From the sequence record SRR2962707_1633: DNA of 38,501 bases. One strand, given 5' to 3'. The notes beneath the pieces were generated by a model. It saw only the letters and a program-made list of their open reading frames with translations. It did no database searches and was not told where the DNA came from. Positions 1-19,437 of the stretch are shown in pieces (within the stretch, counting starts at the first letter, position 1; each line of letters starts with the position of its first letter). A program made the translations under genes and the position numbers.

Positions 1-747
1 GCCGGAATAGAGCCGGGCGATGCCGTCGGCATCGATATGGACATTGAACTCGGCGCCTGCCGTCGATCCGAATACCTGGTAGCCGGTGGTGGCATCGCCG
101 TCGGTGTTGAACCAGAAGGTCGTTCCCGGTGCGATCGGCTGGGCACTCGAGAGCGCGAATACGAAATGATCGGGTTCAACCCGGCCGTACATTGCGTATC
201 CTTCGACCAGCGTCGATTGGGTATCGAGACGTTGATCTTCAGTCCACTCGGTCAGCAGCCCGTCAAATGTGCTGTCGGGCATCTGGGTAACGAGATACCC
301 GCCGTCGGCATATGACGATGGCAGAAACACGGAATTGTTGATGTCCGCATAAACCGTGAGCGAGGTCACAGCGAGTCCGACCAGCGCCTGGGGCAATTTC
401 ATTTCCAGCGTCATCCCCCCGGCGCCGATTACATATTCGATTTCGGCAACAAGGGTTGCCCCTTCCGAGCCCGAATAGAGCCGGGCGATCCCGTCGTCGC
501 CGAAGTTTATGTTGAACTCTGCACCCACCGCCCAATCAAAGACCAGGTGTCCGGTCTCGCCGTTGGCGTCGGTGTTGAGCCAGAACGTCGTGTTGGGTCC
601 GATCGGCACGGCACTTTCCAGTGCAATGAGGAAAGCCCCGTCCTCATACCGGCCAAAGAGCGCATAACCATCGACGAGCGTTTCGGGCCGCTCGAGGCGA
701 TCGGATGGCGACCAGTCGGTGAGGGTTCCATCAACGGTGATGGTCAT
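1..747 (-). CDS. N-terminal part (249 aa visible) of a large protein made of tandem ~156-aa CBM9/DOMON-like repeats; continues beyond the left edge
   Basis: Manual translation from the ATG at 747 (RBS AGGAG upstream; overlaps the TGA of the upstream ORF as ATGA) is open to position 1. Repeat 1: MTITVDGTLTDW...TTFWLNTDANGETG...GAEFNI...GIARLYSG...TLEMKLP. Repeat 2: TFDGLLTEW...TTFWFNTDGDATTG...GAEFNV...GIARLYSG. It is absent from the ORF track because there is no stop in the window. No signal peptide. Confidence 0.85.
   Translation of the reverse strand, partial: MTITVDGTLTDWSPSDRLERPETLVDGYALFGRYEDGAFLIALESAVPIGPNTTFWLNTDANGETGHLVFDWAVGAEFNINFGDDGIARLYSGSEGATLVAEIEYVIGAGGMTLEMKLPQALVGLAVTSLTVYADINNSVFLPSSYADGGYLVTQMPDSTFDGLLTEWTEDQRLDTQSTLVEGYAMYGRVEPDHFVFALSSAQPIAPGTTFWFNTDGDATTGYQVFGSTAGAEFNVHIDADGIARLYSG
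5..489 (-). repeat. Intragenic tandem domain repeat with a 468-bp (156-aa) period
   Basis: Identical 17-mer GAATAGAGCCGGGCGAT at 5-21 and 473-489, plus collinear protein similarity along the unit. Confidence 0.9.
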
Positions 748-1418
748 TGGGGTGTCTCCTGTGCAGAAGGGTTGTCAATCAGCGCCAATGATCGCCATTC
801 GGCGGTTTCATCCGTCGCTGCTGATTTGAGGCGTTCAAGCCGCGCAAGGTCGTGCTGGCTTGCCAGCCCGTTCGTGCGGCCCAATTCGATGGTGGCACGC
901 TCACCGGTCCGGTCGCCCTCAAGCCGGTACAGCCCGATCAGCCGCCGATAGGCGGCGGCGGTGGGTGTCCGGACAAAGATCTGTGCGAGGATGCGGGCTT
1001 CGTTGCCGTAGGAATTCTGGGCTCGATAAACGTCGATCAGCATCGGCCGTGCCCAGTCACTTTGCGGGCGGGTGGCGATTTCGTCTTCAAGCAGATGCGT
1101 AAGTGGGCCGATCTCACCCTGGGCCTGATAGAGCCCAGCCAGCGAATAGGCCTCGAACGGGTTGAGCCGAGCCGTTTCGCGCTTGGTTTCATATAGCACT
1201 ATGGCTTCGCTTACTCGCCCCTGCGAAAGCAGCACCTGAGCCTTTTCCTCGGTGTTGGGCAGCATGGCAATCGCCGCAACGATGGTGACTGCGACGATAA
1301 CCGCGACAAAGATCGTGGTTCGTTCGGACGGATCCATGCGCGACAGGAAGGCCAGGGGGCCGGGGCCCGAAAGCCATGTCGGCCGGTAGGGTTCGCGGTG
1401 GTCAGCGAGAGTGGGCAT
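744..1418 (-). CDS. Membrane-anchored TPR-like protein (224 aa); possible stand-alone counterpart of the PelB TPR region
   Basis: Probable start ATG 1418 (AGGGAG RBS; the ORF track extends it to 1490). One hydrophobic helix (IFVAVIVAVTIVAAIAML) followed by TPR-like helices (AQVLLSQGRVSEAIVLYE, LAGLYQAQGE, LIDVYRAQN, LIGLYRLEGD). Overlaps both neighbours. Confidence 0.65.
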   Translation of the reverse strand: MPTLADHREPYRPTWLSGPGPLAFLSRMDPSERTTIFVAVIVAVTIVAAIAMLPNTEEKAQVLLSQGRVSEAIVLYETKRETARLNPFEAYSLAGLYQAQGEIGPLTHLLEDEIATRPQSDWARPMLIDVYRAQNSYGNEARILAQIFVRTPTAAAYRRLIGLYRLEGDRTGERATIELGRTNGLASQHDLARLERLKSAATDETAEWRSLALIDNPSAQETPQ

Positions 1419-2313
1419 CGTCGAGCTCCCTGTCGCCGACAAACAACACCACCCCGAGCGTCGCGGCGGCATCGTGGGCCTGGGCAACATCAGCGGAGGC
1501 GCTGAGATACTCGGCCAGGAACACCGGCTTGCCCTCAGCAGTGAGGCGGGAGATCAGTTCGAGAGAAGCGCGCAGCGTCCCGAGGCTGTTGCGCTGCTCG
1601 TCTTCTTCGGCGCCAAACAGCAGGTCTTCCTTGGCCAGTCCGTCGATGATGTGGCGGTATGAAGGGTCGCTCAGCAGCTCTTCGCCATTCTGCGGCACGA
1701 CCAGAAATTGCGGCACGCCGGAACGGGCATAGGCGGCAAGGCTATTGACGAAAGCCACCATCGCGCTTTTGCGGGGGGAGGCGCCGAGCTGGGGATCGTT
1801 GCGCTCGAAAGCATCGACCCGATCGAGATAGACGCCATCGAAGCCGGCCGCGATAATCTGGTCGAGATAGCTGGCGGGCTGACCGAAAATGATCGCCTGC
1901 CAGGCTGGGTCCCAGTAACGGATATCGTAATTGCCGTCCCATTCGGGGTTCTCGCCAAGCAGCCAGGCCGGGCGGTTCCGGGCCCAGTCGTCCTGCCAGT
2001 AGAACCGGTAGCTTTCAGCCTCACCTATTGAGAGATAGGCGAGGACAAAGCGCCGCGATCCATCGGGCTTGGTTTTGAGGGTGGCGATTTCGCGGGCGGA
2101 AAAGGCGCCTTCCACCGTCCCATCGCGCGAGTAGTCAATGACCAGCAGGTCAGAATGGGTGGCGGCAAGGATACGCAGATCGATCCCCTGGAGCTGGTAG
2201 CTCCAGGACCGAACTCCGGCCAGTGCCGAAGCTGCTCCGCCGATTGCATACGACGAAAGCATCAGCGGAAATGCGGCCAGGACGGCGGCCAGTCCGGCCA
2301 AGCGTATCCCCAT
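1402..2313 (-). CDS. Secreted TM1410/MJ1477-type (PF03537, GH114/GH166-like) endo-alpha-1,4-polygalactosaminidase, similar to the PelA hydrolase domain
   Basis: Signal peptide; motifs SWSYQLQG, LAYLSIGEAESYRFYW, GENPEWDGNY, GFDGVYLDRVD, VPQNGEEL and AKEDLLFG are typical of this family; no deacetylase domain. Confidence 0.85.
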   Translation of the reverse strand: MGIRLAGLAAVLAAFPLMLSSYAIGGAASALAGVRSWSYQLQGIDLRILAATHSDLLVIDYSRDGTVEGAFSAREIATLKTKPDGSRRFVLAYLSIGEAESYRFYWQDDWARNRPAWLLGENPEWDGNYDIRYWDPAWQAIIFGQPASYLDQIIAAGFDGVYLDRVDAFERNDPQLGASPRKSAMVAFVNSLAAYARSGVPQFLVVPQNGEELLSDPSYRHIIDGLAKEDLLFGAEEDEQRNSLGTLRASLELISRLTAEGKPVFLAEYLSASADVAQAHDAAATLGVVLFVGDRELDDAHSR

Positions 2314-2388
2314 AACGCAAGTCTCCCATTCGCCCGATCATTTGGGTCGGGGCGATCTGGACACTATGGGGGCGCTGCCTGCGCAATG

Positions 2389-2402
2389 TTGACATTCATC
2401 AA
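2389..2402. promoter_or_regulatory. FixK/FNR-type binding site TTGAC-ATTC-ATCAA in the divergent pel-like promoter
   Basis: Matches TTGAY-N4-RTCAA exactly. Candidate -10 hexamers lie at class-II distance on both sides: CATTAT at 2425-2430 (+) and TAGTGT at 2366-2361 (-). Confidence 0.75.
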
Positions 2403-2487
2403 CTCGGGGTCGGCTTGGGCACGACATTATTGGGGCAGTTGTCACAAGACGTTCGGGAACCCGAACAGAGAAAGCAGGGTGGCCATC

Positions 2488-3189
2488 ATGGCACAGTCCA
2501 TTCAGACCTCTTCCGGGGCAAAATCCGCGCCCCTTCCGGAAAAGCCAGTCGCCCGGACATTGTTTACCGCGCTCAAGACACTGGTCTTTGCCACCGAACT
2601 GGTTGGAATTATCCTGCTCGTTCTGGGGTACATCGACCTGGGCACCGCGCTGGCCCTTCATCTGGGATATTGCGCCGTGTTGCTGGCGACCGTTTTTACG
2701 GCGGAGCGCGGCGGCGTCTATTCGGGCGATCTTCAGTGCTTTGCGCTTCAGGTGCTGGTGGCTGGCCCGCTGGGCGCGGCCTCGGCCATGATCGACGAGC
2801 AGCTTTCATCTCGCATCCGTTCAGAGCATCTCCAGCGCTGGTACGATACCATAGCGCCACCACTTAAACCGGCAGTGACCCTGGCCGACCGTATCCGTGA
2901 CGATCAGGTCGTCCGTCCGGCAGCACGGCTGCCGAAATCGGTCGACCGGCTGATTACGTCGGGCTCGATGCGGGAGAAACAGGCGCTTTTTGCCTCGATC
3001 GTTGCCGACGGCCCAACCGAGGGCGTCAACCTGATCGAAAAGGCGCTGCGCAGCCGCGATCAGCGGGTTCGCGTCCAGGCGGCCGCCGTTTCCGCGCTCT
3101 TTCGCTCCAAGGTTCGCATCAGTGCGGGCCAGCGTCATCAATCGGATATTGCCGTTCCTGCCAATGACTTCACGACGCCTGCAGCATAG
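2488..3189 (+). CDS. pelE: PelE-like membrane protein (TM helices plus HEAT-like repeat), 233 aa
   Basis: Probable start ATG 2488 (the ORF-track start 2155 overlaps the divergent gene). N-terminal TM helices, then HEAT-like NLIEKALRSRDQRVRVQAAAV. Sits directly upstream of pelF-pelG. No C-terminal TPR. Confidence 0.6.
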   Translation: MAQSIQTSSGAKSAPLPEKPVARTLFTALKTLVFATELVGIILLVLGYIDLGTALALHLGYCAVLLATVFTAERGGVYSGDLQCFALQVLVAGPLGAASAMIDEQLSSRIRSEHLQRWYDTIAPPLKPAVTLADRIRDDQVVRPAARLPKSVDRLITSGSMREKQALFASIVADGPTEGVNLIEKALRSRDQRVRVQAAAVSALFRSKVRISAGQRHQSDIAVPANDFTTPAA

Positions 3190-3200
3190 GGGCTGACGAC

Positions 3201-4730
3201 ATGGAAATGCCCTCCTGGTTTGTGCCCACTTGGCGCGACCCCGAGCCTGAAACAGATGTGTGCCTGATCGCCGAGGGCTGCTACCCCTATGTTGCGGGAG
3301 GGGTCTCCACCTGGATCGACTGGCTTATCAGAAGCCATCCGGATCTGAGCTTTTCGGTGCTGGCCATCTTGCCGAGCATACCGCTGACCGAACCGCGCTA
3401 TGAGCGCCCGGCCAATCTGAAGGCCATCGATCACCTGTATCTTGACGACAAGAGCAGGGGCCAGAAGAACAGCTGGCCGGCCATGACGCCGCAATGGTAC
3501 GCCGATACGCTCACCGCAATTCTCGATCATGGCGATCCGGCGGCGTTTCATGCACTGCTCGACAAGCTGGGGCCGGGAAGACGTCGCCCTGGCGTTGCGG
3601 CACTGCTCGATTCCCCCCAGGCATGGCAGGCGCTTTCGGCCGGCTATGGACGCATGCCGCAGACGGCGTTCATTTCGTATTTCTGGGCATGGCGTGCGCT
3701 GGCCGGCGGGTTATTGCGCACCCTTGTCAGCCCGCTTCCCAACGCCCGGCTCTACCATTCGGTTTCCACGGGCTATGCAGGACTGGTTGCGGCGCGTGCT
3801 GCCCACGATACCGGCCGTCCGGTGATGATTACCGAGCACGGAATCTATTCCAACGAGCGGCGCGTCGAAATCCTGATGGCCGACTGGATCAAGAACAGCA
3901 TCGAAACCGGGCTCGATTTTACCGATGAGCGCCAGGATGTTCGCGATTTCTGGGCCGACGCTTTTGAAAGCTTTGCGCGCATCGCCTATAGCGCGGCCGA
4001 CGACGTTATCGCGCTCTATGGCGACAACAACGCCTTCCAGCTGGCGCTGGGGGCCGACGCCAAGAAGCTCACCGTGGTCCCCAACGGGGTGGATGTCGAC
4101 CGCTTCAATACGCTGCCTGAACGCGTTTCAAAACGTCCCACCCTGGCGTTTATCGGCCGCGTCGCGCCGATCAAGGACATCCAGACGTTTATCGATGTCG
4201 CCGAACGGGCTGCGTCCAAGGTCAAGGACCTGCGCGCCTTCATCATAGGGCCGATGGATGAAGATCCCGAGTACGCCCAGAGCTGCATCGACGCCGTCAA
4301 TGAGCGTGGGCTGACTGACACCATCATTTTTACCGGTCCGGTCGATGTGCGCGACTACATGGCCGAAATAGATGTTCTCATGCTCACCTCGATTTCCGAG
4401 GCGCTGCCGCTCGTTATTCTCGAAGCCGGGGCTGCGGGTGTTCCCTGCATCGCAACCGATGTTGGCGCCTGCCGGGAAATCCTGGGATGCCCGGGCAGTC
4501 CCGGGCAGGCAGCCGTCGCTGGCATTGGCGGCATGGTCGCGCCGGTTGGCGATGTCGGGGCGCTCGTTTCGGCCGCCGTGCATCTGCTCAACAATCCCAT
4601 GGCGCGCGAGAAGATGGGTGCAGCGCTACGCTCCAAGGTCCGGATCCAGTTCCGGTCGGATACCATCGCTGCGGCCTATACGAAACTTTACGGCCGACAT
4701 CTTTCCAAATTCGCCAAGAGTGAGGTCTAG
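3201..4730 (+). CDS. pelF: GT4 glycosyltransferase PelF (DUF3492 + Glycos_transf_1)
   Basis: PelF signatures DVCLIAEGCYPYVAGGVSTW, HSVSTGYAG, ITEHGIYSNER, GRVAPIKDI and the EX7E motif SEALPLVILE. Confidence 0.93.
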   Translation: MEMPSWFVPTWRDPEPETDVCLIAEGCYPYVAGGVSTWIDWLIRSHPDLSFSVLAILPSIPLTEPRYERPANLKAIDHLYLDDKSRGQKNSWPAMTPQWYADTLTAILDHGDPAAFHALLDKLGPGRRRPGVAALLDSPQAWQALSAGYGRMPQTAFISYFWAWRALAGGLLRTLVSPLPNARLYHSVSTGYAGLVAARAAHDTGRPVMITEHGIYSNERRVEILMADWIKNSIETGLDFTDERQDVRDFWADAFESFARIAYSAADDVIALYGDNNAFQLALGADAKKLTVVPNGVDVDRFNTLPERVSKRPTLAFIGRVAPIKDIQTFIDVAERAASKVKDLRAFIIGPMDEDPEYAQSCIDAVNERGLTDTIIFTGPVDVRDYMAEIDVLMLTSISEALPLVILEAGAAGVPCIATDVGACREILGCPGSPGQAAVAGIGGMVAPVGDVGALVSAAVHLLNNPMAREKMGAALRSKVRIQFRSDTIAAAYTKLYGRHLSKFAKSEV

Positions 4731-4732
4731 AC

Positions 4733-6127
4733 ATGGCCGGCATCGGGTTTGCCCTTTCCAAGCTGAGCAGTCAGAACAATCTGGCCGGGCATTCCATGGC
4801 CACCGGTCATGCCATCATGGTTACGGCCGGGCCATGGATCGTCATCATGGTCGGCCTGGCGTTGATTTCATGGCTCGGCGTTCCGCTGGTGGGGCTGGAG
4901 ATGACGACGACGTTCCGCGTCCTGGTCATCTATTGCTTTGCACTCTCTCTGGTGGTGACGGCCCCTATCGCGCTCGAGCTCAATCTGCGCGTTTCGGCCC
5001 AGTTGTTCGACCGCCGCTTCGACCAGGTACATGGCATCTACAATGGTGCCCTGGGGGTTGCGGCGCTGATTACCGTGGTTCTCGCCTGGGTGCTGTTTTA
5101 CGTTATCATCGGGCTGGACATGGCCACGGCGACGGCCGCCACCTTCTGCGTTTTGCAGGTGTCGCTGCTCTGGCTCACCATGTCCATGGTCGCGGCGATC
5201 CGCCAATATACCACGGTGACAACGGGCTTTACCATGGGGTTGAGCGTGTCGGTCGTGCTCGGCCTGTCGCTCGCCAGCCTGGGCTATGGTGTTGCGGGCC
5301 TGCTCGCCGGGTTCGGGGCGGGGCTGTTTCTGGCCTTTGCCATTCTGCACGGGCTCATTGTCCAGACCTTTCCCGGCCGGATGCTGCGCTTATCCGACGG
5401 CATTCGATCGCTGATCGCCCACCCCATACGCTCGCGCACTTTCGTCATAGCGGGGCTGTCGAGCGCGCTCGCCGTGTGGATCGACAAGCTCGTCGTCTGG
5501 CAATCGTATGAAGCCACGGCCATCGCGCATGGGCTCATTCACGCGCCACGATACGATGTGCCCATGTTTATTGCCTATCTCTCGATCGTTCCGCTGATGA
5601 GCATCGTTTCGATCTGGCTGGAGACCGATTTTTTCGTCGCCTATCGCAAGTATCGCGACATCGTCCATTCGGGCGGCACGCTCCGCCACATCGATGCCCA
5701 GCGCAGCGAGATCACCGGGCAGACCACAAATACGATCTTTTCGGCTTTCGTTATCCAGATCGCGATCAGTCTCGTGCTGGCGCTGGCCGGACCCTGGATC
5801 GTCGGCTTTCTCGGACTTGGGCTCGAAACGCTGCAGGTCCTGCGTCTCGCGCTGATTGGCGCAGCGTTCCACTTTCTTTTTCTCGCATGCGTCGGGGTTA
5901 TCCTCTTTGTGCAGTACGCGCGTGCCTACTTCGTGCTGCAGGCCACCTTTCTCGTGCTCAATGGTGGGCTGACTTATGCGCTGCTGGCCAATCCGGACGC
6001 CCTGGGACTGGGGTACGTGATCGCAACGGGCGCCGCTGCGATCCTTGCCTATGTGGTCATGGTCAACACGCTCAAGGTGATGAACAGGCTGACATTCATC
6101 GACAATAACCCGGCGGTTGCAGGCTAG
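4733..6127 (+). CDS. pelG: Pel polysaccharide transporter PelG (MOP-like, ~12 TM)
   Basis: MAGIGFALSKL start, AGPW, WIDKLVVW, YDVPMFIAYLSIVP, LETDFF..YRKY; begins 2 bp after the pelF stop. Confidence 0.92.
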   Translation: MAGIGFALSKLSSQNNLAGHSMATGHAIMVTAGPWIVIMVGLALISWLGVPLVGLEMTTTFRVLVIYCFALSLVVTAPIALELNLRVSAQLFDRRFDQVHGIYNGALGVAALITVVLAWVLFYVIIGLDMATATAATFCVLQVSLLWLTMSMVAAIRQYTTVTTGFTMGLSVSVVLGLSLASLGYGVAGLLAGFGAGLFLAFAILHGLIVQTFPGRMLRLSDGIRSLIAHPIRSRTFVIAGLSSALAVWIDKLVVWQSYEATAIAHGLIHAPRYDVPMFIAYLSIVPLMSIVSIWLETDFFVAYRKYRDIVHSGGTLRHIDAQRSEITGQTTNTIFSAFVIQIAISLVLALAGPWIVGFLGLGLETLQVLRLALIGAAFHFLFLACVGVILFVQYARAYFVLQATFLVLNGGLTYALLANPDALGLGYVIATGAAAILAYVVMVNTLKVMNRLTFIDNNPAVAG

Positions 6128-6161
6128 ACCCTGCGCTGCCCCGGAACCAAGGATAAACACA

Positions 6162-6698
6162 GTGAACGTCCATGCGCCGAAACGGGGGAGTCCCAGGCTC
6201 TCGCTGGGAGAAACGACCAGAGGCTCCACGAACCATTGGGTGGGGGTCGTTGAAGGCGCCGTGCTGATTGGCGGTGTGTTTGCCGTCGAACGCCTGGGGT
6301 TGTTCGATCTTCAGACGCTGCCGCTCCATCCGCTGGTTCTCGCCGTGGCGCTGATTGCCGCTCAATATGGGGCTTCGGGCGGGATCATGGCCGCTGCAAT
6401 GGCTTCCGCACTTGCGCTTCTGGGCGGCACGCTGCCCCAAAGGGTGGTGGGAGAGGGGTACTTTGAGTATCTCGCTGCGGTCTGGACGACGCCTTTGGCC
6501 TGGCTGGTCATCGCCGTGCTCGTGGGGATCATCTCGGATGGCCACCGGCGATTGCTGCAGCGCTCCGAGCAAGCGCTTTTTGAAGTGCAGAAAGAGCGCG
6601 ACCTGATTTCAGCGCAATATGAGGCACTGGCGGCACGCGCCAAACGGCTCGAAAGGCGCGTTGCAGGGATCGAGAACGGCTCCTCGTCTCGTCGATGA
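6162..6698 (+). CDS. Mini-PelD-like protein: 4 TM helices and a coiled coil only (178 aa)
   Basis: Probable GTG start at 6162 after AAGGA. TM region with HPLVLAVALIAAQYGASGGIMAA resembles the PelD membrane domain, followed by a coiled coil (RRLLQRSEQALFEVQKERDLISAQYEALAARAKRLERRV) and a stop. No GAF or GGDEF domain. Confidence 0.6.
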   Translation: MNVHAPKRGSPRLSLGETTRGSTNHWVGVVEGAVLIGGVFAVERLGLFDLQTLPLHPLVLAVALIAAQYGASGGIMAAAMASALALLGGTLPQRVVGEGYFEYLAAVWTTPLAWLVIAVLVGIISDGHRRLLQRSEQALFEVQKERDLISAQYEALAARAKRLERRVAGIENGSSSRR

Positions 6699-6802
6699 AA
6701 ATTGGTTTGCTGTCAATATCGTACAAACCCTAGTGGGAGAACCGGAATTTCTTAACAAAAGTTAAAAACCCATAATTAAGAAAATATGGGAGGACTAAAC
6801 AA

Positions 6803-7456
6803 ATGTTTATGCAAAGGGAGCCCCGCAGTATGGGTCCAAGTTCCATCACCGGAGCTGCCGGGTATACGGGATTTGCTGAGGGTTTGAAGCTTAGCGCTAC
6901 CGCACGGCATAGGGAAAAAGAGCTCATCTATGCTCAGGGCGACGAGGCCGGCGACATCTTTATCGTCGAATTCGGCTGCGTCCGCGTCTCTCGGATAACG
7001 CTGGAAGGCCGTCGACTGGTCACCGGGTTTTACTTTGCGGGCGAGGTCTTCGGCTTCGAAACGGGCTCCGAGCGGCAGTGCTACGCTGAAGCGCTCGAAT
7101 ATTCAGGCACGCGGAAATTTCATCTCGAAGATAGGGATCTGACCAATCCGCGGATTGCCGATATGCTGTTTGACTACCTTGAAAGCACCCATCAGCACCT
7201 GTTGATACTGGGAACCCAGAATGCCATCGAACGCGTGGCTGCATTTCTTGTGGGGATTGCCGACCGGCGGGGGGGCGACGGTCCACGGGCCCGTCTTCCG
7301 ATGTCGCGGAGCGATATTGCCGATCATTTGGGGCTGACGCTGGAAACCGTATCGCGCGCCATTCACCGCCTGCAGGTTCTCAAGCTCATTACGCTGGTGG
7401 GCGCACGCGATGTCATTCTGCTCGACCGCGAGGCGCTGATCGATCTGGGCGCTTAG
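6803..7456 (+). CDS. fixK: CRP/FNR-family transcriptional regulator, FixK-like
   Basis: GGAGG RBS; IYAQGDEA, GRRLVTGFYFAGEVFG, ERVAAFL and HTH LPMSRSDIADHLGLTLETVSR (E..SR recognition helix); no N-terminal Fe-S cysteine cluster; adjacent to fixJL-like genes. Confidence 0.8.
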   Translation: MFMQREPRSMGPSSITGAAGYTGFAEGLKLSATARHREKELIYAQGDEAGDIFIVEFGCVRVSRITLEGRRLVTGFYFAGEVFGFETGSERQCYAEALEYSGTRKFHLEDRDLTNPRIADMLFDYLESTHQHLLILGTQNAIERVAAFLVGIADRRGGDGPRARLPMSRSDIADHLGLTLETVSRAIHRLQVLKLITLVGARDVILLDREALIDLGA

Positions 7457-7497
7457 ACCGGTGTTTCGCAGGGTGTTGGAGTAGTGCCTGTTTTGTA

Positions 7498-7539
7498 GCG
7501 TATTGAGGTAAAGTGGTGTCGCACTTTATCTCAGTACGC
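7498..7539 (+). terminator. 18-bp stem-loop between convergent fixK and fixJ
   Basis: GCGTATTGAGGTAAAGTG-gtgtcg-CACTTTATCTCAGTACGC; two G-U pairs on the + strand; no U-tract. Confidence 0.5.
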
Positions 7540-7544
7540 CCCAG

Positions 7545-8171
7545 CTAATCGCGGCCTGCATACTGGTCCGAGCCCTCAACGGCCATCCGTACCAACTCCG
7601 CGAGGCTGTGGGCATGCATCTTGGTCATGATCGTGGCGCGATAGACTTCGACCGTCCGGGGGCTCAGGCCGAGATTGCGGGCGATGGACTTGTTGGGGAG
7701 CCCGTTGACGACTCCTTCGAGAACCTGACGCTCGCGGGTGCTGAGCGACTCCAGCTTCTGACGGGCCGCCTGGCGCTGGTGACGAACCTGGCTCTTTTCC
7801 TGTGCCGCAGCGCAAACCCTGGTGAGGGTGGCCAGAATGGTCTCTTCGCTGAACGGCTTTTCAATGAAATCGCTGGCGCCGGCCTTCATGGCCTCGACGG
7901 CAGCCAGCACGTCTCCATGTCCGGTGACAACGATCACCGGCAGGGTGTTTCCGTCCTTGCGCAAACGCCGCAGCAGATCGATGCCGTTCATTTCCGACAT
8001 GCGCAGATCGGTTACCAGGCAGGCCTCGTGCAAGTTTTCAGCCGTGTCGAGGAATTCGGCCGCTGACGCGTATTTCCGTGATCGCCAGCCCGACGCCGCG
8101 AGCAGAAACGATAGTGACTGACGAACCGGTTCTTCGTCGTCTACGATGTGGATCAGGAAATCACTCGTCAT
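7545..8171 (-). CDS. fixJ: FixJ-family response regulator (REC + LuxR HTH)
   Basis: IHIVDDEEPVRQSL, CLVTDLRMSEMNG, TGHGDVLAAVEAMKAGASDFIEKPF, PNKSIARNLGLSPRTVEVYRA. Confidence 0.9.
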   Translation of the reverse strand: MTSDFLIHIVDDEEPVRQSLSFLLAASGWRSRKYASAAEFLDTAENLHEACLVTDLRMSEMNGIDLLRRLRKDGNTLPVIVVTGHGDVLAAVEAMKAGASDFIEKPFSEETILATLTRVCAAAQEKSQVRHQRQAARQKLESLSTRERQVLEGVVNGLPNKSIARNLGLSPRTVEVYRATIMTKMHAHSLAELVRMAVEGSDQYAGRD

Positions 8172-9618
8172 GAGCCTGAACCTCTCTGTCGACCAAGGGA
8201 AGGGTGAACGTGAAAATCGTTTCTCTGCCCGCTACGGACCGAGCACTTATTGCGCCTCCATGTGCTTCTATAATGCGCTTGGAAATCGAGAGGCCGACCC
8301 CCATGCCGCGCCGTTTCGTCGTTACGAAGGCCTTGAAGATTTCCTCGCCGAAGTCAGGGGGAATACCCTGCCCGGTATCGCTGAGTTCGATCCGCGCGAA
8401 TTGACCGCTGCGCCGTGTGCGTATGGTGATGACCTTGCGCTCGCTGGTTCGCACAGCGTCGGTGGCATTGCGCAGGAGATTGACGATAACCTGCTGGATT
8501 TGGGTCGGGTTGCCCAGGGCCTCAAGCGGCCCGGGGGCCAGGTCGAGTTCGGTAAGAATGCCGTCTTCCCTCGTGCCGGCCAGCGCCAGCGCCATGGCAC
8601 CTTCGATCAGCGTGTTGACGTTGACGATCTCCTTGTCGATCTCGCCCTGTGCCATGAAGATACGAAGGTGATGGATGATGTCGCCGGCGCGCAGCGCCTG
8701 GGTTGCTGCTGCCGCAAGCGACTCGCGCAGTGCAGGAAGCATTGCTGCGTCGAAGACCTCGAGCATGCGCTTGGCGCCCTGCACGTAATTGCTGATTGCC
8801 GAGAGCGGCTGGTTGATTTCATGGGCCAAAGCTGAAGCCATCTCACCCATCTCGCTCATGCGCGACAGCCGGGCCAGTTCGGCTTCGGTTTGTTCGAGCC
8901 GGGTTGCGGCACGCTCGCGCTCGGTCATGTCGCGCGCAAAGCCGATAAACAGAAGGCCTTCGCCGGTCGCGATCCGGACCACGTCGATGCTCATGGGAAA
9001 CGTTGTGCCGTCGCTCCGCTTGCCCCGTAGCAAACGGTTCCGGCCAAGAAACCGGGCAAAGCCGGTGGGCGGATAGTCTGCACTGCCAATGCGATCGAAA
9101 TGATGGGGTTCGGCTATCAGGATCTGGACGCTCCGGGTCAGCACCACTTTCTCGCGATAGCCAAATAATCTCTCGGCCGCCGCGTTGAATGAAACGATCT
9201 CTCCACTCGGTTTGCTCGCTATCGTCGCGTCCGAGATCGTGTCGAGGATGGCCTGCAGGTAGCTCTCCCGCCGTTGCAGGAGCTTGCTCGCCATCAGAGC
9301 CTTGTTCCGTTCCTCGCGCAGGATGCCGCCCAGCCAGGCGATTCCAACACCGACGCCCGCGAACAAGATGAGGTCGGGGCCTTGAGACGTGCTCTCTTCT
9401 TCGGTGAAAAGATACACCAGCGGGAGCGCAAGGACCATGGTGAACACGCCGGGCGCCATGCCGCCCATGCCAGCAGCGAGCAGAATGGCCAGCGCAAAAA
9501 ACATGCCGTTAAATGATGATGTGAAAACGAGGGCGACGGCCAGCTTCAGGGTACTAACAAGGATTAGTCCCGCCAAGCCAATCACATAAGCAATTATTAT
9601 GTCCCTCGGCAGCCCCAT
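8161..9618 (-). CDS. fixL: FixL-like membrane sensor histidine kinase (TM region, PAS, HisKA, HATPase)
   Basis: FixL-type H-box RMSEMGEMASALAHEINQPLSAISNY, PAS with FNAAAERLFGY and GKRSDGTTFPM, G-box GMGVGLSISKRIIEAHGG; overlaps the fixJ start. Confidence 0.8.
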   Translation of the reverse strand: MGLPRDIIIAYVIGLAGLILVSTLKLAVALVFTSSFNGMFFALAILLAAGMGGMAPGVFTMVLALPLVYLFTEEESTSQGPDLILFAGVGVGIAWLGGILREERNKALMASKLLQRRESYLQAILDTISDATIASKPSGEIVSFNAAAERLFGYREKVVLTRSVQILIAEPHHFDRIGSADYPPTGFARFLGRNRLLRGKRSDGTTFPMSIDVVRIATGEGLLFIGFARDMTERERAATRLEQTEAELARLSRMSEMGEMASALAHEINQPLSAISNYVQGAKRMLEVFDAAMLPALRESLAAAATQALRAGDIIHHLRIFMAQGEIDKEIVNVNTLIEGAMALALAGTREDGILTELDLAPGPLEALGNPTQIQQVIVNLLRNATDAVRTSERKVITIRTRRSGQFARIELSDTGQGIPPDFGEEIFKAFVTTKRRGMGVGLSISKRIIEAHGGAISARSVAGRETIFTFTLPLVDREVQAHDE

Positions 9619-9715: not shown

Positions 9716-11227
9716 TTACGACCTGGCAGATGCCGGCGTGCTGCGTTTCGTGCGGAGCGCACTCCAGACGAAATAGACGATCAGCAGAGCCCCGATGGCA
9801 AGGACAGTTGCGCTGATGGGGCGCTCGAAAAACACCCAAGGGTCACCGCGCGACAGCAGCAGGGACCGGCGCAGATTGGTTTCGATCAGCGGGCCGAGCA
9901 CCAGGCCCAAAAGCAGCGGGGCAGGGGAAAAGCGCATCAGGCGCAGGCCATAGCCGACGAGCCCGAACGTAACGGCCAGCATCACGTCGAACACCGAATT
10001 GTGGATGGAGAAAACGCCGACGCAGATGAAAACCAGAATGGCCGGATAGAGCAGGCCATAGGGAATGGAGAGGATCCGCACCCATACCCCGATCAGTGGC
10101 AGGTTGAGGATCAGAAGCATGATGTTGCCGATGAGAAAGCTGACGGTCAGGCCCCAGAACAGTTCGGGCTGATCGACCACGAGACGCGGGCCAGGCACGA
10201 TGCCGTGGATGATGAGCGCGCCGAGCATGATGGCGACGATGGCATCGCCGGGGATGCCGAGGCTGAGGGTGGGGATGAAGGCGGTCTGTGCGGCGGCGTT
10301 GTTGGCCGCCTCGGGGGCGACGACCCCTTCGATGGCGCCCTTGCCCAGCTGGTCGCGATTGGGCGAAACGCGCTTTTCGACGGCATAGGCAACGAAGGTC
10401 GATAGGGCCGCTCCGGTGCCGGGCAGGATGCCGAGCACCGAACCGATGCCAGTGCCGCGGATGGCCGGCATGAGCGAACGTTTCCAGTCGCCCCGCGTGG
10501 GGAGCAGGGAGCGCCAGGTGACATTCATGGCTTGCACCGTGCCGCGCTTGATGCGGCCGGCATTGGCGATGACCTCGGAAATGCCGAACAGGCCCGTTGT
10601 GATGATGACTAGGTTCAGCCCGTCGCCGAGTTCGGGGAAGCCGCCGGTAAACCGGCGCACGCCGCTGTTGACGTCGGTGCCCACGATGCCGAGCAGCAAG
10701 CCGAGCACCACCATGGCAAGGGAGCGGGCCGGAGAGCCATCGCCGACCAGGGCAGCTGCGAGCAGGCCCACGGCCATCAGCGCGAAATATTCCGGTGAGC
10801 CGAAGGTGAGTGCAATCCGGGCCAGCGCGGGCGCAAAGGCGGCAAGGATGAGGATACCGACCATGCCGCCGGCAAAGGACGCGATGGTTGTGGCAAACAG
10901 CGCCACACCGGCCCGGCCCTGCCGCGCCATGGGATAGCCGTCGAGACAGGCCACGGCGGCCCCGGCGGTGCCGGGCAGATTGAGCAGGATGGACGCTGTC
11001 GAGCCGCCATACATCGAGCCGTAATAGATGCCGGCCAGCATGATGATGGCATCGGTCGGGCCAGCATAAAAGGTCAGGGGCAGCAGCATGCCGACCGTTG
11101 CGAGCGGGCCGATGCCGGGCAGGACGCCGATGAACATGCCCAGGGTGACGCCGAGAGCGCAATAGAAGAGGGACGAGGTCGACAGCGCGACCGAAAAGCC
11201 CAGGGCGAGATTGTCGAACAGTTCCAT
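9716..11227 (-). CDS. tctA: Tripartite tricarboxylate transporter large permease TctA
   Basis: GVLPGIGP, GIYYGSMYGGS, PEAANNAAAQTAFIPTLSLGIPG, GLVLGPLIETNLRRSL. Confidence 0.95.
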   Translation of the reverse strand: MELFDNLALGFSVALSTSSLFYCALGVTLGMFIGVLPGIGPLATVGMLLPLTFYAGPTDAIIMLAGIYYGSMYGGSTASILLNLPGTAGAAVACLDGYPMARQGRAGVALFATTIASFAGGMVGILILAAFAPALARIALTFGSPEYFALMAVGLLAAALVGDGSPARSLAMVVLGLLLGIVGTDVNSGVRRFTGGFPELGDGLNLVIITTGLFGISEVIANAGRIKRGTVQAMNVTWRSLLPTRGDWKRSLMPAIRGTGIGSVLGILPGTGAALSTFVAYAVEKRVSPNRDQLGKGAIEGVVAPEAANNAAAQTAFIPTLSLGIPGDAIVAIMLGALIIHGIVPGPRLVVDQPELFWGLTVSFLIGNIMLLILNLPLIGVWVRILSIPYGLLYPAILVFICVGVFSIHNSVFDVMLAVTFGLVGYGLRLMRFSPAPLLLGLVLGPLIETNLRRSLLLSRGDPWVFFERPISATVLAIGALLIVYFVWSALRTKRSTPASARS

Positions 11228-11685
11228 CAGAAGGGCCAGTCTATCGGTGCGATGGGCATTTTCAGGAAGGTGATGAAGACCAGCGTGCAGCCGAGCGCCA
11301 AGCCGGTGGCCAGAAGAAGCACGCTCAGCGGACGCAGCGAGCGATCGGCGAGCGCAGAGATCATGACACTGGCAACAATCGCAGGGATGAGCCCGAACGG
11401 GACGACAAGCAGCGCAAAAGCGATAGGGCCGCCAGCTACGGTGAGCAAGCTCGTCAGCGGGACCGGGGTTTGCGGTATCGTGCCGGCGCGCAGATCTTCA
11501 ATGATGATGGCGATCCCGGCGATAATGAGGAGCACTGATAGCCCGAGGGGAAAGACAGCGGGGCCGATCTGACCGATGCTGCCCAACGGGTAGCGAAACG
11601 ATTCGATAAACGCCGCCGCGCCCACGAGAAGTGTGACAGCGCCGGTGACTGCCGGCCGAACAGGAACCTGACGAGATTTTGCCAC
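11227..11685 (-). CDS. tctB: TTT small permease TctB
   Basis: Probable GTG start at 11685 (GGGGAG upstream); YPLGSIGQIGPAVFP motif, 4-5 TM helices, stop overlaps the tctA start. Confidence 0.85.
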   Translation of the reverse strand: MAKSRQVPVRPAVTGAVTLLVGAAAFIESFRYPLGSIGQIGPAVFPLGLSVLLIIAGIAIIIEDLRAGTIPQTPVPLTSLLTVAGGPIAFALLVVPFGLIPAIVASVMISALADRSLRPLSVLLLATGLALGCTLVFITFLKMPIAPIDWPF

Positions 11686-11760
11686 CGGGTGCGAGTCTCC
11701 CCTCGCGTTGCAGGCTGAACCGGCATGCCCTCTTGCAATGCTGGACCTGTGTGATAGCCT

Positions 11761-11776
11761 GTTCACAAATGTGAAT
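11761..11776. promoter_or_regulatory. Candidate IclR operator GTTCACAAATGTGAAT
   Basis: Imperfect palindrome between divergent tctB and iclR; a similar 16-mer occurs at 12647-12662. Confidence 0.5.
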
Positions 11777-11787
11777 AGGTTTACAAT

Positions 11788-12549
11788 ATGAGACAGCCAT
11801 CAATCCGAAAAGTCAAGTCGGCAGATCGCACGCTCGATCTTTTGGAAACGCTGGCCGGGGCATTGTCGCCGCTGAGCGCGACGGAAATTTCCACAGCGCT
11901 GGAAATTCCGAAAAGCAGCCTTTTTCATTTGCTGGGAACGCTCGAAGAGCGTGGCTATCTCAGCCAGGATAACTATGCCGGCTATACGCTGGGCCCGGCC
12001 GCCGCCCGCCTCGCGAGCGCGGCGATGTCTGAGCCTTCAGTGCTGACGGTGCTGGAGAGCGTGCTCGACGAGTTGCGCGACGCGATCAACGAAAGTTGCA
12101 GCTTCAACGTGGAAAAGGGCGATGAGGTCGAAGTGGTGGCGACGCGAGCAGGGCGCAACGCGTTGACCTATACAATGCAGGTCGGTGACCTGGCGCCGCT
12201 GTATGCCGTTTCTTCGGGAAAAATCTTTCTGGCCAACAAGACGCGCGACTGGTTCGACGCCTATCTCGACCGGGTCCGTTTCGAGCGCTTTACGCCCAAT
12301 ACCATCCAGTCCCACGAACGCCTGCTGCGTGAAATCGAGCGGACGCGGGCCGAGGGAATTGGGTTTGTGGAGGAAGAATTCACGCCCGGCATAATCGGGA
12401 TGGGCGCGGTGGTCCGCCAGCAGGGACAGATCGTTGGCGCTATCAACGTCGCGGTGCCCAGCCCCCGGTTCAGCCCCCAGAAGGCCTCGCAGGTGCGCCA
12501 GCATCTGCGGCAGGCCGTGAGCCGGGCTGAGAGCCTGCTCGGCAGCTAA
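11788..12549 (+). CDS. IclR-family transcriptional regulator
   Basis: VKSADRTLDLLE..EISTALEIPKSSLFHLLGTLEERGYL wHTH; PLYAVSSGK; EEFTPGIIGMGA; GAINVAVP. Confidence 0.93.
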   Translation: MRQPSIRKVKSADRTLDLLETLAGALSPLSATEISTALEIPKSSLFHLLGTLEERGYLSQDNYAGYTLGPAAARLASAAMSEPSVLTVLESVLDELRDAINESCSFNVEKGDEVEVVATRAGRNALTYTMQVGDLAPLYAVSSGKIFLANKTRDWFDAYLDRVRFERFTPNTIQSHERLLREIERTRAEGIGFVEEEFTPGIIGMGAVVRQQGQIVGAINVAVPSPRFSPQKASQVRQHLRQAVSRAESLLGS

Positions 12550-12646
12550 ACTGTTCATCAGCCATCGGTGCCCTTCGCGTCAGCGGTTCCCGGGAGCGGC
12601 TTGACATGCGGTGCCGCGCGTGCACTTTTGTTTATGAATAGGAATA

Positions 12647-12662
12647 GTTTATATATGTAAAC
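12647..12662. promoter_or_regulatory. Candidate IclR operator GTTTATATATGTAAAC upstream of the tctC operon
   Basis: Palindrome downstream of TTGACA (12601-12606); shares the consensus GTTYAYAWATGTRAAY with 11761-11776. Confidence 0.5.
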
Positions 12663-12692
12663 AATTATTTGAAAGACATGGAGGAGGATCCA

Positions 12693-13664
12693 ATGACTTT
12701 TCGCAAATCGATACTGGCCGGTCTGACGGTTGCGCTGGCGTTTGCCGCTGTGCCGGCCATGGGCCAGCAATGGCCCGAGCGTCCCGTCAATATGGTGGTG
12801 GCCTACGGAGCGGGCGGGGGAACCGACACGCTGGCCCGTATCGTGGCGGACCCGCTTTCGCGCATCGTCGGCCAACCAGTGGTCGTTGAAAACCGCCCCG
12901 GCGCGGGCGGAACGATCGGCGCGGATGCCGCGGCCAAGGCCACACCGGATGGCTATACGCTGTATATGATGGCCAACGGCCACACTGTGGCCGGCGCCAT
13001 GTATGCAAGCCTGCCCTACGATCCGGTCGGCGACTTCCAGGGGATTTCCGAGGTTGCCGCCATGCCGCTCGTTGTCGTGGCGCGCCCCGATTTCGAAGCC
13101 GATACGCTCGAAGAGCTTATAGCGCTTGCCGCGGAACGCCCGGGCGAACTCAATTTCGCCAGCGTCGGCGTGGGTTCGTCGCAGCATTTTGCCGGCGAAC
13201 TTCTGGCGGAAACCGCCGGCATCGACATGATGCACATTCCCTATCAGGGCACGCCCGAAGCTCTGGCCGCAGTCCTTTCGGGGGAAGTGGACATGCTGGT
13301 CGAGGTGCTGGCACCGATGCTGGGCCAGATCAGCAGCGGTGACATCAAGGCCATCGTGGCGACGAGCGCCGAGCGTCATCCCAAAATCGCTGACGTCGCA
13401 ACCGTCGCCGAGGCCGGTTTCGAAGGGTTCGATGTTTCCACCTGGTATGGCATCGCTGTGCCGTCCGGAATGGATGCCGGGCTGGCCGAAGAGATCAACG
13501 CAGCGGTCTCGGCGGCGCTCGAAGACGAGGCGCTCATCAATCAGCTCGGGGAATCGGGCTATATCGTTGGGGCCTCGGAGCCCGAAGCCTTCACCGCCAA
13601 GATCGGCTCGGAAGTCGAGCGCTGGACCGCCGTTCGCGTCAGCGCCGGTATCGACCAGATCTAG
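12693..13664 (+). CDS. tctC: TTT substrate-binding protein (Bug/TctC family)
   Basis: ATG 12693 after GGAGGAGG; signal peptide; WPERPVNMVVAYGAGGGTD, VVENRPGAGG, PDGYTL, HIPYQG. Confidence 0.93.
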   Translation: MTFRKSILAGLTVALAFAAVPAMGQQWPERPVNMVVAYGAGGGTDTLARIVADPLSRIVGQPVVVENRPGAGGTIGADAAAKATPDGYTLYMMANGHTVAGAMYASLPYDPVGDFQGISEVAAMPLVVVARPDFEADTLEELIALAAERPGELNFASVGVGSSQHFAGELLAETAGIDMMHIPYQGTPEALAAVLSGEVDMLVEVLAPMLGQISSGDIKAIVATSAERHPKIADVATVAEAGFEGFDVSTWYGIAVPSGMDAGLAEEINAAVSAALEDEALINQLGESGYIVGASEPEAFTAKIGSEVERWTAVRVSAGIDQI

Positions 13665-13726
13665 GGCAATCCATGGGCCGCGCCGATGGGCGCGGTCCTT
13701 CACCTTTTGCGGAATTATTCATCCCC

Positions 13727-14314
13727 ATGACCAGAACGCTAAATCTGCTCACTGTTTGCGGTAGCCTGCGCCAGGGCTCGTTCAACCGCATGGTGGCCAA
13801 TACCCTGCCCGATCTCGCGCCCGATGGAGTCTCGATTGTCGAAGCGCCCTCGATTGGCGATCTTCCGCTCTACAATGCCGATATCCAGAACGCCGACGGA
13901 TTTCCGGCTGCCGTAACCGCGCTGGGCGAAGCCATTCGCGCTGCTGACGGGGTGGTCTTTGTGTCGCCCGAGTATAATTTTTCGGTTCCCGGCGTGCTCA
14001 AGAATGCGCTGGACTGGGTGTCGCGACTGCCCGACCAGCCCTTCAAGGGCAAGCCCATCGCGCTGCAATCGGCGGCGACCGGGATGTTGGGGGGTGCGCG
14101 GGCGCAGTATCACATGCGCCAGATTATGGTGTTTCTCGAAGCCCTGGTGTTCACCAAGCCGGAAATCTTCGTGTCCTTTGCCAAGGACAAGGTGGACCCG
14201 CAGACCGGCCGCCTTGTCGATGAAACAACCCGCACGATGATCGCCAGCCAGTTAGACGGCTTTGCGCAGTTTGTCGCCCGCGTGGGCCCAGCCCAAACCG
14301 GAGAACAACGATGA
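13727..14314 (+). CDS. NAD(P)H-dependent FMN/quinone reductase (YieF/chromate-reductase type)
   Basis: GSLRQGSFNR, LPLYNAD, SPEYNFSVPGVLKNALDWVSR, GGARAQYHMRQ; probable start ATG 13727. Confidence 0.9.
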   Translation: MTRTLNLLTVCGSLRQGSFNRMVANTLPDLAPDGVSIVEAPSIGDLPLYNADIQNADGFPAAVTALGEAIRAADGVVFVSPEYNFSVPGVLKNALDWVSRLPDQPFKGKPIALQSAATGMLGGARAQYHMRQIMVFLEALVFTKPEIFVSFAKDKVDPQTGRLVDETTRTMIASQLDGFAQFVARVGPAQTGEQR

Positions 14315-14934: not shown

Positions 14935-14941
14935 CCTGGCG

Positions 14942-16893: not shown

Positions 16894-16959
16894 TGGAGTG
16901 GTTGCGTTCGATGTCGGTCGACCGACATCATGGCGCCATGGATTCGCAGGAGATCGCCA

Positions 16960-17670: not shown

Positions 17671-18074
17671 TTGCTGGCGCCCAACAGGCGCGTCGCGAAA
17701 TAGCCGGCGGTCGCGGCGGTGCCGGTGAGCGCGGCGCCCCAGAGGATATCGATGATGGTGACCGAAACCGACCAGTCCCGGATGGTCGCGAGATTGGTCA
17801 TGTCGTAGGTGCCATAGGCCACAAGGCCCAAAATGGCGCCGGCGATCAGGGCCTGTGTCCAGTTGCCCGATTGCATGGCCGGGGCGACGGCGAAGTAAAC
17901 GATGCCCCCGATATAGAACAGGTAGAAGGCACCGGCCGCGGCGAGATTGGGCTGGTCGAGCAGGACGTGGCCGATCTGTTCGCGGTAAAAGCCGAAAGCA
18001 ACCCGCGACAGCCAGATATAGTCGATGGCGAAAAAGACGATGGCCGTTCCGATGTAAGCGACGACGTACGGCAT
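17667..18074 (-). CDS. DUF2177-family membrane protein
   Basis: Probable ATG 18074 after GAGGG; IDYIWL, FYLFYIGGIVYFAV, GLVAYGTYDMTNLATIRDWS, DILWG; last gene of the rpoE-chrR operon. Confidence 0.85.
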   Translation of the reverse strand: MPYVVAYIGTAIVFFAIDYIWLSRVAFGFYREQIGHVLLDQPNLAAAGAFYLFYIGGIVYFAVAPAMQSGNWTQALIAGAILGLVAYGTYDMTNLATIRDWSVSVTIIDILWGAALTGTAATAGYFATRLLGASN

Positions 18075-18082
18075 GTGATCCC

Positions 18083-19428: not shown

Positions 19429-19437
19429 GCTTGGATT

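Follow-up and report, generated by a model that had tools for sequence, protein, structure and literature searches.

Pel is among the most widespread biofilm polysaccharides, and the known on-switch of its synthesis is the binding of cyclic diguanylate (c-di-GMP) to PelD. A DNA stretch of 38,501 nucleotides from sequence record SRR2962707_1633 (the window; 38.5 kb), which originates from a marine Pelagibacterium, carries in its left 9.6 kb (positions 1-9618) a Pel-like gene cluster together with a block of regulator genes. A sequence-only reading of this DNA had proposed that the cluster forms a self-contained module controlled by its own FixL-FixJ-FixK cascade instead of by c-di-GMP. Judged by profile matches and synteny, the cluster represents a reduced Pel-type exopolysaccharide system common to the Devosiaceae, with a predicted PelD that lacks the GAF and GGDEF receptor part. 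New here is the apparent combination of this minimal PelD with a conserved promoter carrying a box of the FNR/FixK type. The gene content further suggests that one Pelagibacterium clade has a dedicated FixK-type regulator along with a FixL/FixJ pair whose kinase no longer binds haem in the FixL manner.

In Pseudomonas aeruginosa both transcription, through FleQ, and PelD respond to c-di-GMP, as stated in the accessible part of PMC12345266. Compared with pelABCDEFG of this organism and pelDEADAFG of Bacillus cereus, the window cluster shares PelF and PelG at orthologue level, a PelD homologue and a membrane protein at the PelE position. It differs in that pelD follows pelG and encodes neither GAF nor GGDEF, that general Pfam scans showed neither PelB nor PelC in its vicinity, that the hydrolase belongs to the GH114/TM1410 type and has a gene of its own, with a possible deacetylase inside a giant RTX protein, and that the promoter bears an FNR/FixK box with no FleQ-type control evident. 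A divergent glycoside hydrolase, as in the window cluster, is reported for many Gram-positive pel loci in the accessible text of PMC12345266. The same portion of that paper shows that PelD variants without GGDEF are known already: the class IV PelD of streptococci (Streptococcus intermedius) is independent of c-di-GMP, and its alternative regulation is described as yet to be determined. This protein resembles the window PelD in lacking a GGDEF receptor domain, but it keeps GAF and has gained a degenerate SDR domain, whereas the window PelD consists of membrane helices and coiled coil only, and the window host, unlike streptococci, is Gram-negative with many GGDEF proteins. The diversity of pel operons has been described without mention of Alphaproteobacteria in the main text of PMC7112194, as far as that text was accessible.

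With the FixL-FixJ-FixK cascades of rhizobia and Caulobacter the window has in common a FixL-type PAS kinase, an equivalog-level FixJ and a cysteine-less Crp/Fnr regulator encoded together. In contrast to these cascades, the histidine that serves as haem ligand is missing from the window kinase, a cbb3 oxidase is absent from the nearest genome, fixK faces fixLJ in convergent orientation instead of running in the same direction, and the only nearby box lies at the polysaccharide cluster. Iron-sulfur FNR sensors (FnrL/FnrN) acting beside cysteine-less FixK/Dnr-type paralogues on the same palindrome offer a second parallel, except that in the present proposal the two would have an exopolysaccharide cluster as their common target and not a set of respiration genes. 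FixLJ of the Burkholderia cepacia complex is likewise linked to biofilm formation but is described as oxygen-sensing and global, and the accessible part of PMC5234846 states neither a Pel linkage nor a loss of haem. For Dinoroseobacter shibae, the accessible part of PMC5398030 describes FnrL and Dnr regulators acting in a cascade. Full-text literature searches returned nothing that paired Devosia with PelF or Pelagibacterium with FixL. Among the matches listed for FixK or FixLJ with biofilm or exopolysaccharide were Burkholderia FixLJ and rhizobia but none on Pel, and among those listed for the pel operon with FNR or Anr none tied an FNR box to pel.

Core genes of the Pel-type cluster

The left 9.6 kb consist of two back-to-back transcription units followed by the regulator block. 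Gene calls rest on Pfam and NCBIfam profile scans with family cut-offs. For comparison, 80 pelG loci were gathered from contigs of one genome per species by means of a 17-sequence PelG alignment; 19 of them are from Devosiaceae (4 from Pelagibacterium or close relatives, 1 from an uncultured member of the family, 14 Devosia-named) and the other 61 are not.

The sequence-only reading had called pelF and pelG clear, and both proved to be full length. The GT4 glycosyltransferase PelF (3201-4730, + strand) scored 370.7 bits with NF038011 (cut-off 100; profile positions 1-489 of 489) and 234.6 bits with DUF3492, the membrane protein PelG (4733-6127, +) 369 bits with PF16933 (positions 1-452 of 452). 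The rightward unit opens, immediately before pelF, with a gene (2488-3189, +) for a 233-residue protein with a membrane part and helical repeat; the first ATG of its open reading frame (ORF), at 2155, is not the true start. Its earlier designation as pelE-like stands with regard to position, since 44 of the 80 loci (all 19 Devosiaceae ones and 25 more) have a homologue immediately before pelF. As to identity beyond position, there were only weak HEAT/EboA hints and membership in unnamed clusters of the protein atlas.

The gene following pelG (6117-6698, +; a GTG at 6162 is a possible start) encodes 193 residues comprising membrane helices and a coiled coil, in which Pfam detected neither GAF nor GGDEF. 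It aligned with residues 48-191 of a 406-residue protein with transmembrane (TM) and GAF parts from the Hyphomicrobium pel locus L058, in which its gene stands two places before pelF (31% identity, E 4e-17). A profile of the 193-residue family matched 5 of 10 PelD_GGDEF-bearing proteins drawn from a 401-genome sample of the phylum (E 1.5e-12 to 3.8e-6), and the best alignment, the sole one viewed, was collinear, running from the membrane helices through the coiled coil to the GAF domain of PelD. Because these E-values refer to a ten-sequence database, the profile matches are modest evidence; taken with the Hyphomicrobium alignment they indicate that the protein is a PelD reduced to its membrane module, in keeping with the earlier description of a PelD-like gene without signalling domains. 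PelD-homologous ORFs of 164-294 residues, again without GAF or GGDEF, were present in the 19 Devosiaceae loci. In the protein atlas the truncated PelD fell into unnamed clusters only, with no named family, and the Hyphomicrobium TM+GAF protein matched nothing among solved structures at E <=1.

The FNR/FixK box in the divergent promoter

The two units diverge from a 174-bp intergenic region (2314-2487) which contains a palindromic box of the FNR/FixK type, TTGACATTCATCAA, at 2389-2402. It agrees with TTGAT-N4-ATCAA at 9 of 10 consensus positions and is the sole exact TTGA-N6-TCAA in the window. By itself such a match is within chance (0.36 exact boxes expected; at least one in 32 of 100 shuffles). 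The comparison of loci gave a different picture. All 19 Devosiaceae loci had an exact box in the corresponding intergenic region, and in the box-anchored alignment 8 of 8 half-site positions were invariant, against 1 of 6 central positions and 0 of 30 flanking positions on each side. The box occurred as 11 distinct sequences; in 11 of the 19 loci it was the only exact one in 13-21 kb, in the remaining loci there were 1-2 more, and altogether only 13 other exact boxes were counted in 391,584 bases. Among the 61 non-Devosiaceae loci no positionally conserved box was detected. Because the half-sites are invariant in 19 of 19 loci and the flanks vary, the box is taken to be real, and as a phylogenetic footprint it is almost certainly functional as a Crp/Fnr-type site. 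The presence of a FixK/FNR box in the divergent promoter, one of the observations of the sequence-only reading, is thereby confirmed.

In the window clade the -10-like hexamers CATTAT and CATAGT start 21-23 nt from each box edge, a spacing that fits two putative class II promoters sharing one site. The typical FixK targets fixNOQP and hemN were not detected in the window by Pfam scans, as had been noted before, nor was any classical FixK target among the genes right of 9618, from tctA/tctB to a peptide transporter. In six Devosia loci (L055, L056, L057, L059, L060, L062) an extra exact box, TTGATGGCAGTCAA or TTGACGGCAGTCAA, was observed at positions of about 64-83, just past the 3' end of the small RTX gene and close to the limit of the available sequence.

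The FixK-like, FixJ and FixL-like genes

A fixK-like gene (6803-7456, +) and a fixLJ-like pair (fixJ at 7545-8171, fixL-like at 8161-9618, both on the - strand) adjoin the Pel cluster, as the sequence-only reading had stated. The FixK-like Crp/Fnr regulator scored 64.7 bits with HTH_Crp_2 and 37.3 bits with cNMP_binding, was 34-50% identical to FixK proteins adjoining canonical fixLJ in metagenome contigs and lacks a cluster of cysteines at its N-terminus. The recognition helix has the sequence LTLETVSRAI (ETVSR), and an E--SR recognition helix in Crp/Fnr proteins reads TTGAT. Upstream of the gene an AT-rich block of about 63 nt (6712-6774), nearly invariant in 4 sequences, was kept, in contrast to the diverging spacer and the end of the gene before it; the block is a candidate for a regulated promoter. 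FixJ scored 281.6 bits with NF006900 (cut-off 255), 94.7 bits with Response_reg and 79.2 bits with GerE.

The FixL-like protein is a membrane histidine kinase with an intact kinase core: H266, the N box and the G box are invariant, the N-terminal membrane helices are conserved, and the core gave 246 bits to chimeras carrying the core of Bradyrhizobium japonicum FixL. Its PAS domain matched the haem domains of FixL from Sinorhizobium meliloti (1d06, E 3.6e-27) and B. japonicum (1dp6, E 2.9e-22), and it retains an arginine aligned with one of B. japonicum FixL which we take to be R220. The proximal histidine, presumably H194 or H200 in the numbering of the reference FixLs, is absent. The window protein has R in this column, and R, E or D was found in 9 of 9 clade members (48-100% identity), whereas the histidine was kept in 8 of 8 canonical FixLs in the same alignment and, as read from the printed segments, in 78 of 78 canonical FixLs of a metagenome scan. 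An HH pair three to four residues upstream of the lost histidine in the window protein was not conserved in the clade. Distant haem-less relatives (P0138, P0143, P0146) were 48-51% identical to the kinase. The orthologue P0127 is assigned by one source to Pelagibacterium halotolerans.

The remains of the haem pocket appear to be decaying. Among six close orthologues only 3 of 23 columns of the former haem helix and loop (residues 168-190) were invariant, compared with 71 of 94 for the remainder of the PAS domain and 350 of 485 for the whole protein; by these counts no part of the kinase changes faster than the former haem site. Since the haem-ligand histidine is gone, the protein should not be a low-oxygen sensor of the rhizobial/Caulobacter kind. 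Oxygen sensing in the FixL manner is unlikely, the signal is probably not oxygen via haem, and oxygen input, if there is any, would more likely arrive through an FnrL-like protein (see below). The low-oxygen FixL-type cascade that the title of the sequence-only reading implies is contradicted on this point.

Extent of the linkage

The trio was found beside pelG in 3 of the 80 pelG loci (L016, L017 and L018, all Pelagibacterium-like) and in 0 of the 14 Devosia-named loci. Genome-wide statements rest on the nearest genome (G001; 99% identical over 9.7 kb and 99% complete), which serves as a stand-in for the source organism. In the 18 genomes of its genus, each at least 91% complete, the FixL-like gene was present in 6 and pelG in 7; in 6 of 6 the two were about 2.0-2.2 kb apart, and the trio never occurred away from the Pel cluster. 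A metagenome scan with the kinase yielded 80 loci, of which 2 were of the haem-less type, both with a pel cluster alongside; no pelF or pelG was found near canonical fixL in the other 78, many of which are contigs of only 2-10 kb. The left and right flanks gave scattered 63-84% matches in five genus genomes and no clear empty site. A synteny search, which had been suggested as a check, thus recovers the linkage in 6 of 18 genus genomes and the box in 19 of 19 Devosiaceae loci, but the linkage is confined to one clade. Because the box is family-wide and the trio is not, the box either predates the trio or is independent of it.

Other regulators occupy the corresponding place in related loci. 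In P. sediminicola (L021) the slot after pelD holds another cysteine-less Crp/Fnr gene whose product is 22% identical and has the helix ETISR, in Devosia L059 and L068, both Pfam-scanned, a REC-LuxR regulator and a HisKA_3 kinase, and in Devosia L020 and L072 ORFs of matching size and strand. It appears from these gene contents that the slot after truncated pelD is a regulatory one which is filled differently among lineages. Beyond the two-component pair, L059 carries a gene (14562-21392, +) for a protein of >2200 residues with an animal-haem-peroxidase domain and many RTX repeats, and an ORF of >2100 residues lies at the equivalent place in L072 (15031-21392).

Candidate binders and other boxes in G001

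A second candidate for the box is an FnrL-like regulator, for which six Devosiaceae genomes (G001 and five others) were surveyed. The FnrL-like proteins are 59-95% identical mutually and 27-35% identical to the FixK-like protein, and they combine an N-terminal C-x2-C-x5-C motif with the helix ETVSR. The best NCBIfam model of the G001 copy was FnrL (210 bits, below the cut-off of 300). The box may be used by the FnrL-like and the FixK-like protein alike.

G001 contains 15 exact TTGAY-N4-RTCAA sites, compared with 5 for a reversed control pattern. Intergenic boxes were observed upstream of cydA (divergent from a CydDC-like transporter), hemF and usp, in the pel promoter and in a spacer between a second glmS and type I secretion genes. 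No ccoN above cut-off was found (28 bits versus 583), that is, no cbb3 oxidase, and no second kinase matching the FixL-like PAS region. G001 thus seems to possess a small FNR regulon of the usual type, and the pel promoter box is of the same box family. The identical box TTGATGTGGGTCAA occurs twice in this genome, at C6:161880 upstream of usp and at C3:149470 between ftsK and an ammonium transporter gene.

The box in the glmS spacer, TTGACAATCGTCAA (L129 6325-6338, where L129 is G001:C2:164000-179400), lies 11.4 kb left of the pel promoter, between the second glmS (-) and a type I secretion pair for an ATP-binding cassette (ABC) protein and HlyD (+); these are followed by the genes for a 296-residue RTX protein and the giant repeat protein described below. 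The cluster therefore extends over about 25 kb with two box-bearing divergent promoters. Two glmS genes of G001 scored above the family cut-off, the cluster-side copy with 738.5 bits, and in D. albogilva (L019) glmS adjoins the cluster and has its own box. The idea of a self-contained module has to be given up in two respects: the cluster reaches leftward to the giant RTX protein, the type I secretion operon and the second glmS behind a second box, and boxes in G001 are also found at cydA, hemF and usp.

The leftward unit

The first gene of the leftward unit (1402-2313, -) encodes a glycoside hydrolase of the GH114/TM1410 family (PF03537, 100.7 bits; TIGR01370, 249 bits with a cut-off of 181) whose signal-peptide-like N-terminus points to secretion. 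The closest solved structures were TM1410 (E 1.8e-45) and a GH114 TIM barrel, and no PelA chain was found at E <=0.01. The PelA-type hydrolase of the sequence-only reading is accordingly retained as a separately encoded hydrolase of the GH114/TM1410 family, but the deacetylase half is represented by a motif-level CE4 match in the giant protein only. In the Hyphomicrobium locus L058, three consecutive GH114-family genes lie downstream of pelG (11436-15303, -).

The second gene (744-1490, -; the true start is probably downstream of 1490) encodes a membrane-anchored TPR-like protein with a weak TPR_14 match. It aligned with the N-terminal part of a 511-residue TPR protein of Hyphomicrobium L058 (27% identity, E 2e-14) and was found by tblastn in 17 of the 19 Devosiaceae loci, being missing in L051 and partial elsewhere. 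A 795-residue protein of no known family is encoded upstream of the TPR gene of L058.

At 1-747 (-) the window contains the N-terminal 249 residues of a giant secreted protein whose gene runs off the end. The full protein of 1828 residues is encoded in L016 (529-6015, -) and consists of four N-terminal repeats of about 155 residues, an H-S-x-x-H (CE4-like) region, a cadherin-like domain and RTX repeats. A single-repeat model based on 36 aligned repeats reached a predicted local distance difference test score (pLDDT) of 94.7; its fold matched the starch-adherence protein Sas6 (Z 11.1), CBM9 (Z 9.1; Foldseek E 1.1e-3), the C-terminal part of glucodextranase (Z 8.9) and a putative carbohydrate-binding protein (Z 8.0). 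From the CBM9-like fold of the predicted structure, carbohydrate binding by the repeats is a fair inference, which lends substance to the carbohydrate-binding repeat protein of the sequence-only reading. Any deacetylase domain is weakly indicated: CE4 matches were at motif level (Pfam E 0.006, PdaC E 0.06-0.12). An AlphaFold model of the CE4 region (510 residues, 13 sequences) was unusable with a pLDDT of 45, and its profile reached only E 0.12-0.36 against solved structures, at the H-S-x-x-H motif.

Proposed regulation of the cluster

The reading that accounts best for the locus as a whole, and to which we give somewhat better than even chances, is that of a reduced Pel system with a shared box and a clade-specific FixK-type input. 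One divergent promoter would drive the genes for the PelE-like protein, PelF, PelG and truncated PelD on one side, and on the other those for the GH114-family hydrolase, the TPR membrane protein and the giant type-I-secreted protein with its CBM9-like repeats and possible CE4 deacetylase domain; the product would be a Pel-type polymer. For an alpha-1,4 GalN/GalNAc composition there are indirect hints, namely the GH114-family hydrolase and the cluster-side second glmS with its box of the same type. The single box is probably bound by a dimer of the Crp/Fnr family that would activate both directions, and the second box in G001 would serve the second glmS copy and the type I secretion genes. Probably the same box also serves an FnrL-like oxygen sensor, whose input is likely to be the ancestral one. 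In the window clade, the FixK-type regulator encoded after truncated pelD would be added to it. Since this protein has no iron-sulfur cysteines, its activity would be set by its level rather than by a cofactor; its expression is most likely under FixJ, which would be phosphorylated by the adjacent FixL-like kinase, so that the path feeds a lineage-specific signal into the box. A bolder version, which we hold to be doubtful, is that of a FixL-FixJ-FixK cascade freed from respiration, in which the haem-less kinase responds to another signal (perhaps via its membrane domain) and a matrix regulon is the sole target: the Pel synthase with receptor-less PelD, the giant secreted CBM/deacetylase-like protein and a private GlmS. 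If this were true, one box and two back-to-back promoters would amount to transcription-only control of Pel without c-di-GMP.

A number of observations weigh against the preferred reading, and several of them speak for an alternative, namely that only the global FnrL-like iron-sulfur oxygen sensor acts on the box, that the Pel cluster is an ordinary member of the low-oxygen regulon throughout the Devosiaceae and that the trio controls something else or is a redundant passenger. None of the 14 Devosia-named loci has a FixK-like or FixL-like gene in its neighbourhood, yet all of them keep the box, whose presence can therefore be explained without the FixK-like protein; an FnrL-like regulator with the same helix occurs in all six Devosiaceae genomes surveyed, a close FixK-like orthologue in none of the five besides G001 (best 35-36% identity). 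Boxes of the same type at cydA, hemF and usp also speak for this alternative. Furthermore, PelG of the six trio genomes is 89-100% identical to the window PelG, and the linkage may thus go back to one event passed on by descent; the FixK-like and FixL-like proteins stayed below the equivalog cut-offs of their best models (FixK, NF050806, 136.3 bits versus 300; FixL, NF041777, 347.2 bits versus 850); the -10-like hexamers found at the spacing of class II promoters did not outscore randomly chosen positions; Pfam detected no PelB or PelC among the ORFs scanned in the window and 15 kb leftward, a survey that did not include a genome-wide search; and binding and regulation at the locus are predictions throughout. 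Control by FnrL alone nevertheless leaves three things out of account: the trio is never apart from the cluster in the 18 genus genomes, there is no second exact box in the surrounding 38.5 kb, and regulators occupy the same slot in other lineages too. We consider it rather unlikely in this exclusive form. In rhizobia, the sharing of boxes by FNR-type and FixK-type proteins is an established pattern, and for this reason the FnrL and FixK readings do not exclude each other.

The remaining alternatives concern the signal and the reality of the box. A canonical haem-based low-oxygen cascade dedicated to the Pel cluster would agree with a FixJ above the equivalog cut-off, the match of the kinase core to that of B. 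japonicum FixL, the likeness of the PAS domain to the FixL haem domains and the retained arginine; it is quite improbable in view of the lost proximal histidine, which 78 of 78 canonical metagenome FixLs keep, the unconserved HH pair upstream, the decay of the haem helix relative to the rest of the PAS domain and the FixL model score of less than half the cut-off. Whether c-di-GMP has been dispensed with, as the phrase "instead of c-di-GMP" in the sequence-only reading implied, is a separate matter. The PelD homologue has no receptor domain and the known c-di-GMP switch is therefore absent, which makes a control independent of c-di-GMP plausible. This part of the claim agrees with the gene content; its other part has to contend with 22 GGDEF matches in G001 and with a 794-residue PAS-GAF-GGDEF-EAL protein encoded in the window itself, 14 kb from the cluster (23321-25705, +; EAL 250 bits, GGDEF 135 bits). 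c-di-GMP could gate polymer synthesis post-translationally via a receptor other than PelD, with the box as one layer of control, and the double response of FleQ-dependent transcription and PelD in P. aeruginosa (accessible part of PMC12345266) speaks in its favour. Against such gating stand the PelD homologues of about 160-290 residues without GAF or GGDEF in the 19 Devosiaceae loci, the scanned Hyphomicrobium relative with TM and GAF parts only, and the finding that Pfam revealed neither PilZ nor another known c-di-GMP receptor domain in the cluster proteins; we would put it forward as a tentative possibility. A palindrome arisen by chance, in a neighbourhood without regulatory significance, might be argued for from the shuffles of the window, but is extremely improbable given invariant half-sites in 19 loci with 11 box sequences and no invariant flank position, and the scarcity of other exact boxes.

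Neighbouring genes and origin of the sequence

Right of the regulator block, the region 9716-17670 contains tctA/tctB (-), genes for an IclR-family regulator (+) and tctC (+), and genes for a flavin mononucleotide (FMN) reductase, a SnoaL-like protein, an iron alcohol dehydrogenase, an intradiol dioxygenase and an RraA-like aldolase; it looks like a block for the uptake and ring cleavage of aromatic acids. A sigma-70 family factor resembling extracytoplasmic function (ECF) factors is encoded at 18739-19593 (-), and an amine-oxidase-like flavoprotein and a DUF1365 protein at 19554-21688 (+). A beta-oxidation set follows at 26147-34110 (an adenosine monophosphate (AMP)-binding ligase, a large acyl-CoA dehydrogenase, a fused enoyl-CoA hydratase/3-hydroxyacyl-CoA dehydrogenase and a thiolase), and after it the peptide transporter.

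Near-identical DNA was found in phycosphere, algae and seawater metagenomes and in two RNA-seq libraries, and a eukaryote protein set includes a PelG (P0007) 89% identical to that of the window. These occurrences suggest that the bacterium is associated with algae and travels as a contaminant. The contigs of the two RNA-seq libraries span genes and spacers evenly at a depth of about 10, and the runs contain contigs of >50 kb; they therefore look like DNA carry-over and are silent on transcription.

Significance

The locus would be a Gram-negative, non-pathogenic and apparently culturable case of Pel control in which PelD has no c-di-GMP domain. Because a single sharply conserved box predicts the control point, the question of how such a system is regulated is directly testable. 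The FixL-like kinase, with its haem pocket decayed and its kinase intact, is a natural relative of FixL that may be useful for learning what else this family can sense. Finally, a giant secreted protein with predicted carbohydrate-binding repeats and a dedicated copy of GlmS appear to be linked at this locus with a Pel-type synthase.

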